Position numbers and translations under genes: made by a program. A DNA stretch of 64,000 nucleotides, from contig MQRK01227159.1 of assembly GCA_001938485.1 (NCBI GenBank), positions 1 through 64,000 on the forward strand. Direction: 5' to 3'. The notes under the pieces were generated by a model, which worked only from the letters and a program-made list of their open reading frames with translations, was not told where the DNA came from and made no database searches. This document shows positions 54,697 through 55,723 of this stretch, in pieces (positions within the stretch are counted from its first letter, which is position 1; each line of letters opens with the position of its first letter). The stretch is from Girardia tigrina. Its lineage: Eukaryota.

Positions 54697-55723
54697 TGGT
54701 CCGCCTGACCCTCAGGTTACCCCGAGAATCGGACGGAGGTAGCAGAGCTGCGCCGTGGCTTGGCTCGAATTTGCTGGGCCCATATTTGAATCAATTTCAT
54801 TTTGGAATCGGTTTTGTTTAACAAATCACCAACTTCCTCTAATGCGGGCGAGCGTTTCATTCCGCTCCTCGGTGGAATAAGAAGTGAGCGATATTCAGTA
54901 GGCCTTCGCGGTTTCGATAGAGATTCGTCTTGACTGGTCAAAGACAATTGCGTGTCATCAAATAACACTTCATGGGAACTGTTCGATAAGGTAGATACGA
55001 ACAAAAAGTTAATGGTTTGACTCGTTGTCATCAGATGAGTGTAGATAAATTCATCGAAAAAGTCGTCCTGAACAATCGTCTCAACGATAGACTGAGAATC
55101 CGGATTGAGATCGGAATCGCAAATAACAGCCGAATCGTGATTATAACTGACACTCGTTCCCACAGATAATTTATTATCACTATTCAGACAATGTTTGGTC
55201 GATTGCATCGAGAAAAATTCGCAATTTCGGCTCAAAATTCGAATTTTTAAATCAAAACAAAATTCAATCTCAAAATCTTTATTTGTTTCCATTGTCAACG
55301 TCAACAACCAACAGTTCCTTTATTTAATTTCGTTAAACAAAACAGAAGGTCATTTTTTTACTATTCTTTTTTAATTTTTTTTTACATAATTGTTTTTTTT
55401 ACAAACAAACATTAAAATCTTTCACAAAAAAATAACATCTGAATTTTTCAAAACCAGAAATGATTTTTACATATAAATTTTCAAAATTACAATTCAAATT
55501 GTTCAAATTCCATCGAATAATTTCAAATGACGAAAATTAATGAATTAATTTTCTATTTCAATTTGATTTTCTTTTGATATTTGAGAAATTGTTTTTTTTC
55601 CATTCGGCTCGATTTGAAACATATAATATACATATAATATACATATAATATACATATAATAATGATAATTTAATTTAATTAAAAAAACAAAATATAATAA
55701 TTTAAATGTTCGAATCCCGATCA
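54697..55723 (-). other. TG...CA insert carrying a gene 5' fragment
   Basis: 5-bp TSD CAGAG (54692-54696, 55724-55728); removal restores the Penelope frame; ~190-codon ORF plus ~430 bp upstream region. Confidence 0.82.

Follow-up and report, generated by a model that had tools for sequence, protein, structure and literature searches.

A young nested insertion carrying a gene fragment inside a Penelope-family sequence

Capture of gene fragments by transposable elements (TEs) is an already known route to new genes. LTR elements typically have target-site duplications (TSDs) of 3–6 nt, as described in PMC10045372, and their ends, in the account given by PMC3601003, carry a conserved motif recognised by integrase that consists of TG...CA with an inverted repeat of ~7 nt, the consensus being TGTTRNR...YNYAACA. 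The same source mentions that retroviral genomes have a U5-IR loop at their 5' end, and solo LTRs are described as acting as introners elsewhere (PMC12130899). Among the animal Pack-TIRs counted in PMC8277862, 323 of 370 are hAT or Tc/mariner elements.

Here we describe an insert of 1027 nt (54697–55723, minus strand, 32% GC, TG...CA ends) within the window, by which we mean the whole 64-kb stretch of DNA that was analysed. It is a genuine and young insertion nested in another element, its cargo is a real piece of a gene, and it illustrates clearly, as one case, how transposons copy and relocate parts of genes. The window is AT-rich eukaryotic DNA, probably of invertebrate origin, with assembly gaps (28.8% GC, CpG observed/expected 1.04) in which transposon remnants are abundant; a hAT domain is one of them, and some of its ORFs are presumably mariner-like and Chapaev-like.

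Several other features of the window were recorded along the way. Three ORF pieces at 45408–46963 on the minus strand bear a likeness to a Chapaev-type transposase, with a weak zf-AD match. A short hAT-derived element (62467–63360) consists of a dimerisation domain flanked by inverted arrays of palindromic ATCGAT-rich repeats. A MITE-like repeat of 290 nt with inverted ends occurs at 40273–40560 and 60301–60589 (94% identity), and a MITE-like fold-back element of 340 nt occupies 29836–30173. A long minus-strand ORF at 41845–42633, likely a host exon, weakly matched SUMO-activating enzyme subunit 2 (E 7e-4), and this part is followed by a stretch that we take to be PWWP-like. A gene-like ORF of 213 aa at 31428–32069, also on the minus strand, gave no Pfam match and no meaningful PDB match.

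The insertion and its host Penelope fragment

A search with the endonuclease fragment at 53020–53325, which returned two proteins among 28 candidates, identified the uninterrupted relative P0002. This is a 536-aa ORF with an RT (RVT_1, E 2e-11, aa 67–243) followed by an endonuclease-like C terminus, and so it has the Penelope-like layout of RT then endonuclease within one ORF. From its YIGET/R..EH motif we take the C terminus to be a GIY-YIG endonuclease; this part had no match in Pfam.

P0002 reads SAKVVSVTSKVQ straight through the insertion site, and its reading over the site, SSAKVVSVTSKVQSF, has no break. To the right of the insert, P0002 aa 375–413 correspond to 55838–55722 at 92%, and to the left, aa 412–436 correspond to 54695–54621 at 88%. 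A second relative, P0003, and a weaker paralogous copy at 15.0–15.4 kb in the window are likewise collinear through the site, the right flank of the paralogous copy showing weak similarity only (27 of 65 nt). The collinearity of these three sequences indicates that the Penelope family lacks the 1027-nt segment and that the insert postdates the sequence around it. The original prediction of a true insertion younger than its host Penelope was thereby borne out by the uninterrupted P0002 and the mapping of both flanks. The objection that the Penelope consensus might itself contain the segment fails, since the aligned relatives lack it. The region around the 15-kb copy (14914–15660) is an older Penelope-like endonuclease fragment, ~52% identical to P0002 and with a second copy inverted, and it offers a weak second empty site.

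The junctions proposed originally proved exact: copies of CAGAG lie at 54692–54696 and 55724–55728, on either side of 54697–55723. The longest direct repeat at the junctions is the 6-nt ACAGAG (54691–54696 and 55723–55728), which is obtained when the left copy is begun at 54691 and position 55723 is included in the right copy, and the TSD is thus 5 or 6 nt. It is perfect in either reading, and the empty site is identical in both. We prefer the 5-nt register solely because symmetric TG...CA ends result from it. Deleting the insert and one repeat does restore the frame, as had been reported, but the special evidential value attached to this observation did not survive: any TSD-flanked insertion does the same, so frame restoration is evidence of insertion and nothing more. 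The insert and TSD together measure 1032 nt, with the cargo in frame with the Penelope; by arithmetic this is a coincidence of ~1 in 18, noticed post hoc. No second copy of the whole insert or of either end was found within the 64-kb window.

The interrupted sequence is not the intact Penelope ORF that had been supposed, being a 5'-truncated, twice-frameshifted and RT-less fragment. The host copy at the insert covers P0002 aa 337–515 only, plus a second tail (aa 447–536), and the RT residues of P0002 had no match anywhere in the window. Upstream of the insert, positions 55725–55905 on the minus strand correspond to P0002 aa 353–412, with a frameshift near 55835. Downstream, 54384–54695 on the same strand contain aa 412–436, a frameshift near 54621 and endonuclease aa 437–515. 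The 5' truncation of the host coincides with a fold-back inversion at 55841–56003, where P0002 aa 337–373 are found on the plus strand (55891–56001). The open frame over the junction, bounded by the two frameshifts, extends for ~62 codons. All 79 of the 79 endonuclease residues compared (aa 437–515) are identical to P0002, which indicates that the host copy is young at the protein level. The insert is without effect on this already dead Penelope copy.

This Penelope also contains a second foreign segment at 53286–54383 on the minus strand, a GC-rich ORF for C2H2 zinc fingers with weak Pfam matches and an N gap inside. On each side of it is a 205-nt copy of the endonuclease region, the two copies being 95% identical. 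The segment could represent a long duplication, the junction of a tandem array, or the joining of two haplotypes over the gap. The C terminus of the zinc-finger ORF is present in three diverged copies (1322–1900, 14600–14755 and 53284–53540). Two of them share a 76%-identical 3' region and a common multi-stem fold closing in CCAC, in which 18 pairs are kept in both copies and 0 are changed on both sides; the third adjoins another Penelope 3' end. The copy at 53 kb had no match in Rfam.

A captured protein-coding fragment

The minus strand of the insert carries a 191-aa ORF (54717–55292) that extends from its first ATG at 55292 to a TAA at 54719–54717, within a stop-to-stop frame of 200 stop-free codons (55319–54720). 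Upon Markov resampling of the segment, 5 of 3000 sequences reached 190 codons. The ORF is Ser/Asp-rich, in agreement with the first description of it, with 16% Ser and 8% Asp from residue 39 onward, and single-sequence AlphaFold predicted no confident fold (mean pLDDT 39).

Among 1.84 billion representatives, the only protein matched by the ORF was P0004 (E 2.6e-33). The match delimits a captured coding fragment of ~390 nt (54786–55175, minus strand), in which ORF aa 49–178 align with P0004 aa 1455–1600. Identical residues occupy 85 of the 147 columns (58%), and the two gaps, of 17 aa and 1 aa, are both in frame. P0004 alone scored among the 7999 candidates listed for proteins of 427–2000 aa, and no homologue was present among 182 candidates of 110–350 aa; lengths of 351–426 and >2000 aa were covered solely by the representative search. 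Pfam and NCBIfam held neither a family nor a homologue of the cargo ORF, and the ESM Atlas gave no usable match. The cargo was absent from the phage DNA, plasmid DNA and phage translations searched, and 0 of 71 pattern matches in bacterial and archaeal genomes were confirmed.

P0004 is an acidic, low-complexity protein of 1673 aa with three 75-aa repeats, represented by one member sequence from Metaclust. It had no family in Pfam or NCBIfam, and its PDB search gave a single row at E 0.74. Atlas matches to P0004 (≤0.78) were growth-hormone-receptor fragments, which we treated as noise. The BLASTP-type check suggested with the original prediction yielded P0004 and no known TE protein family, and homology to this protein without a TE domain supports the claim that the cargo is a gene fragment unlike TE proteins. 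Calling the source of the cargo a "cellular gene" would follow from the absence of TE domains in what is a single unannotated record.

When the cargo was mutated neutrally to equal divergence, 33 of 1000 runs kept an open frame, and 23 of 1000 reached as large a share of conservative changes as is observed. These results suggest that the sequences had diverged for the most part while the genes were functional, before the capture. Comparison of the two sequences supports reading the cargo as a piece of a real protein-coding gene, and one that bears marks of earlier coding selection. A flat GC content over codon positions (0.44/0.41/0.44) was dropped as a sign of non-coding DNA, because a host-like ORF in the window has a GC3 of 0.44 too.

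Homology outside aa 49–178 was rejected, as 1464, 2382 and 1275 of 5000 shuffles scored as well, and the first 48 and last 22 codons of the ORF have no significant likeness to P0004. Judged from its sequence, the ORF would be either chimeric or flanked by parts that have diverged past recognition. The 48 upstream codons are stop-free, which chance would rarely give (241 of 20000 shuffles), and an AG at 55181–55180 lies immediately before the start of the homology.

Ends, composition and terminal hairpin

In the 5-nt register, the insert starts with TG and ends with CA on either strand, and its terminal 7 nt are complementary at 5 of 7 positions (minus strand TGATCGG and CGGACCA). Of 400000 random insertions, made from 1027-nt pieces at random sites, 7080 had TG...CA in some 4–6 nt register and 1068 (0.27%) combined TG...CA with a terminal inverted repeat of 5/7 or better. 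We believe that ends this infrequent by chance point to an integrase. With free boundaries, the window contains 1174 configurations of a TSD with TG...CA, so the pattern is meaningless unless the boundaries are fixed independently, and here they are fixed by P0002. There was no long direct repeat or LTR pair inside or around the insert, no long TIR inside it and no poly(A) tail on it.

The composition of the insert is mosaic, with 17% GC in 55321–55700, 41% in the captured fragment and 62% in the last 89 nt. The AT-rich, non-coding 5' part (55321–55700, minus strand), which includes an 11-nt tandem repeat at 55619–55662, could be U3/promoter-like or could be captured non-coding host DNA. The GC-rich 3' end (54697–54785, minus strand) has no significant P0004 likeness and is probably the end of the vehicle, a putative U5/att-like part. 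AATAAA occurs three times on the minus strand of the insert, twice with GT-rich sequence after it, and 0 times on the plus strand; three were reached in 953 of 5000 shuffles, so the count is within chance.

The last nucleotides of the ORF strand are predicted to form a terminal RNA hairpin (54700–54737, minus strand) of 16 pairs, four of them G-U, with one C-A mismatch and a GUAA loop. The loop holds the stop codon of the ORF, and the hairpin is followed by CCA at the end of the insert, the whole making up the last 41 nt. With the last 50 nt shuffled at the dinucleotide level, 15 of 4000 sequences folded equally well on the minus strand, compared to 1370 of 4000 on the plus strand, and with the hairpin region folded as DNA the count was 15 of 200. 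Among 4466 windows of 50 nt with at least 40% GC, only the two palindromic repeats at 62.5–63.3 kb fold better. These frequencies come from a hairpin that was noticed first and tested after, with four terminal windows examined, and from a single sequence that allows no covariation. A hairpin specific to the minus strand and to RNA suggests that the minus strand existed as RNA, and as supporting evidence this speaks for a retro route over a cut-and-paste route. The hairpin favours an RNA intermediate. As to mechanism, the original prediction had caught the insertion and had missed the TG...CA ends, the 5/6-nt ambiguity and this hairpin.

Other readings of the ends were considered. ARAGORN found 0 tRNA genes, and Rfam gave 0 matches at gathering score in the window and 0 at E 1 in 52900–56100; on these blanks we rejected tRNA, PBS and SINE readings of the ends. 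Hammerhead (in the insert) and histone stem-loop readings gave no match to their patterns. A perfect B-box-like decamer, at 55708–55717 on the plus strand and 6 nt from the insert end, is the sole exact one in the window, where a looser pattern occurs eight times, and it is probably due to chance. Introners are removed by splicing at or close to their ends in numerous genes. In the insert, GT and AG can be paired close to the ends in 6 ways, all of which would leave the host frame intact, but both AGs lie in the hairpin stem, without a pyrimidine tract. A bacterial promoter scan was uninformative for this eukaryotic DNA.

Possible origins and comparison with known systems

With confidence that is about evenly balanced, we read the insert as a solo-LTR-like unit into which a gene fragment has been captured. 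A retroviral-type (DDE) integrase would have placed this non-autonomous unit, most likely the solo LTR of some LTR retrotransposon, and its 3' half would contain the ~390 nt copied from a cellular gene. Its formation would include the observed interruption of a Penelope-family sequence at one point with duplication of 5–6 nt, and, judging from the ends, an integrase joining CA-3' ends would have made a 5-nt-staggered cut. The middle of the unit comes from a protein-coding gene, and its divergence from P0004 would have accumulated under coding constraint before capture. The minus strand would have been transcribed as a U3-like AT-rich part, then the cargo, then a U5-like hairpin end beside CA. 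The fragment may have entered the LTR by template switching during reverse transcription and been copied into both LTRs, after which recombination would have reduced the pair to a solo LTR; alternatively, gap-filling repair after insertion may have brought it in. Most likely, what resulted is a pseudogene fragment carried as a passenger. The 191-aa chimeric ORF is possibly transcribed from the LTR, and at its present site the insert probably has no function.

Both the TSD size (4–6 nt for solo LTRs) and, in the 5-nt register, the TG...CA termini agree with this solo-LTR reading. Solo LTRs also have AATAAA with a GT-rich tract and a TATA-like region; the AATAAA of the insert are no more frequent than chance gives, and its ends, complementary at 5 of 7 positions, depart from the exact consensus. 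Against the reading, the ends are TGA/TGG and not the TGT of the consensus as PMC3601003 gives it, the 5' TG hinges on the 5-nt rather than the 6-nt register, and the 64-kb window contains no family and no parent LTR element. Paired LTRs matching the insert around a PBS, gag-pol and a PPT were likewise absent from the window.

The hairpin would also be accommodated by another origin, which we consider unlikely: the RT of a LINE or Penelope would have worked in trans at a nick, reverse-transcribing an RNA that ended in the hairpin and CCA. The TSD would then be 6 nt and the 5' TG coincidental. Such a non-LTR retrocopy fits the 6-nt length of the longest junction repeat, the RNA-specific 3' hairpin at the very end of the ORF strand, the shared orientation of insert and Penelope, and the neighbouring zinc-finger insert, whose structured 3' end also closes in CCAC. 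However, the insert has neither poly(A) nor a tandem-repeat tail, its 5' end mirrors its 3' end at 5/7 positions, it contains no hammerhead core and no Rfam match, and its 3' end aligns poorly with the zinc-finger ends. Integrase-type ends would be compatible with a cargo that belongs to a long accessory ORF in a giant, P0004-like LTR retroelement, with the insert being its LTR or a deletion derivative. As an orphan, P0004 belongs to no family; it is an acidic, low-complexity protein in which a 75-aa repeat occurs three times. Burro, a giant gypsy-like element, carries accessory ORFs as described in PMC6431247. We nevertheless regard this as improbable, since P0004 is without a TE domain and has 1 member sequence versus 15 for the Penelope protein P0002, and since the match begins 548 nt inside the insert behind the 17%-GC tract, not at the edge as in a read-in ORF. 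The same tract resembles host non-coding DNA, and with the AG at 55181–55180 just ahead of the homology it could denote a captured non-coding tract and exon in a Pack-type non-autonomous DNA transposon with short ends (Ginger2/Tdd- or IS3EU/GingerRoot-like). Tdd-4/5 are reported to have TG...CA ends and a 5-nt TSD (PMC2836005), and Pack-TIRs are known in animals (PMC8277862). This origin appears quite doubtful to us: Gingers as described in PMC2836005 have TIRs of 40–270 bp and TGTNR ends, whereas the insert has 5/7 nt and TGA/TGG yet a perfect TSD; the hairpin needs its G-U pairs and is weak as DNA; and the 48 stop-free codons upstream of the homology (241 of 20000 shuffles) are unlike an intron.

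It is very unlikely, in our estimate, that the insert arose from a one-off templated insertion at a double-strand break, or from a Helitron-like event, with a short duplication and meaningless ends. Its single copy within the 64-kb window and its mosaic composition would suit such an event, but the ends are improbable by chance (0.27–1.8%) and the terminal hairpin is independently improbable. Helitrons end in 5' TC and 3' CTRR. The insert has a TSD and ends in TG and ACCA, which speaks against a Helitron; it does have a subterminal hairpin, but one that relies on G-U pairs. Helitrons are described as being without a TSD in PMC12130899. There is also a slim chance that the insert belongs to a multi-copy family of mobile gene cassettes without LTR pairs, each with an AT-rich promoter-like 5' part, a complete chimeric ORF formed around a captured piece of a host gene, and a 3' end made of a GNRA hairpin and CCA. 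The GNRA hairpin and CCA would then act as a packaging or priming signal for a retroelement in trans, and the adjacent zinc-finger insert, which likewise lies in Penelope and has a structured 3' end, would represent another cassette of this kind. If this were true, cassette insertions such as this one (1032 nt with the TSD, cargo in the Penelope frame) could seed cargo-endonuclease fusions.

Returning to the solo-LTR reading, the insert shares with solo LTRs, as PMC3601003 describes them, TG...CA ends, a short imperfect inverted repeat, a 5-nt TSD, a length of ~1 kb, an AT-rich part with tandem repeats and the lack of an enzyme. Unlike the solo LTRs of that account, its third base is not T at either end, and it holds 390 nt of foreign coding sequence. 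We found no coding fragment captured inside a solo LTR in the open literature by title or opening of the abstract; the supplements of PMC5131818 and PMC8277862 could hold one.

Like the LTR-mediated retrocopies described by Tan et al. 2016 (PMC5131818), the cargo copies part of a gene, is cut short on both sides, lacks poly(A) and probably lies inside LTR-element sequence. In the retrocopies of that description, the cargo replaces internal ORFs between two LTRs, whereas the insert is one TG...CA unit with no LTR pair. Pack-TIRs and Pack-MULEs, in the account of Tan et al. 2021 (PMC8277862), are likewise non-autonomous units with an internal gene fragment and a TSD, and the capture by gap filling after insertion described for Pack-TIRs is a possible route here too. 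Unlike the Pack-TIRs described there, the insert has no real TIRs, only 5/7 nt. Single-copy Pack-TIRs are said in the same source to tend to capture nearby DNA; a parental copy of the cargo was not found in the window. Ginger1 and Ginger2/Tdd, as PMC2836005 describes them, share with the insert TG...CA ends, a 4–5 nt TSD and integrase-type chemistry, but have TIRs of 40–270 bp and TGTNR ends, neither of which the insert has.

A precedent for foreign cellular sequence within an LTR, with solo LTRs that have 5-nt TSDs, is provided by TRIMp3 (Cassandra, Helenus, Ajax) as described in PMC10886601. The cargo of TRIMp3 is promoter sequence derived from tRNA or 5S in that description, whereas the cargo of the insert is protein-coding. 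The A and B boxes of the Helenus tRNA sequence described there have no full counterpart in the insert, which has the lone B-box-like decamer and no A box apparent by eye in its AT-rich part. Were the unit a multi-copy LTR, each transposition would duplicate the captured coding sequence, which would be left beside a promoter in every solo LTR. The insert resembles LTR retrocopies, Pack-TIRs and TRIMp3, and it lacks the defining structure of the first two and of Ginger. As a coding fragment inside one TG...CA unit whose terminal hairpin is specific to RNA, it matches neither of the routes described in animals, through two LTRs or through two TIRs.
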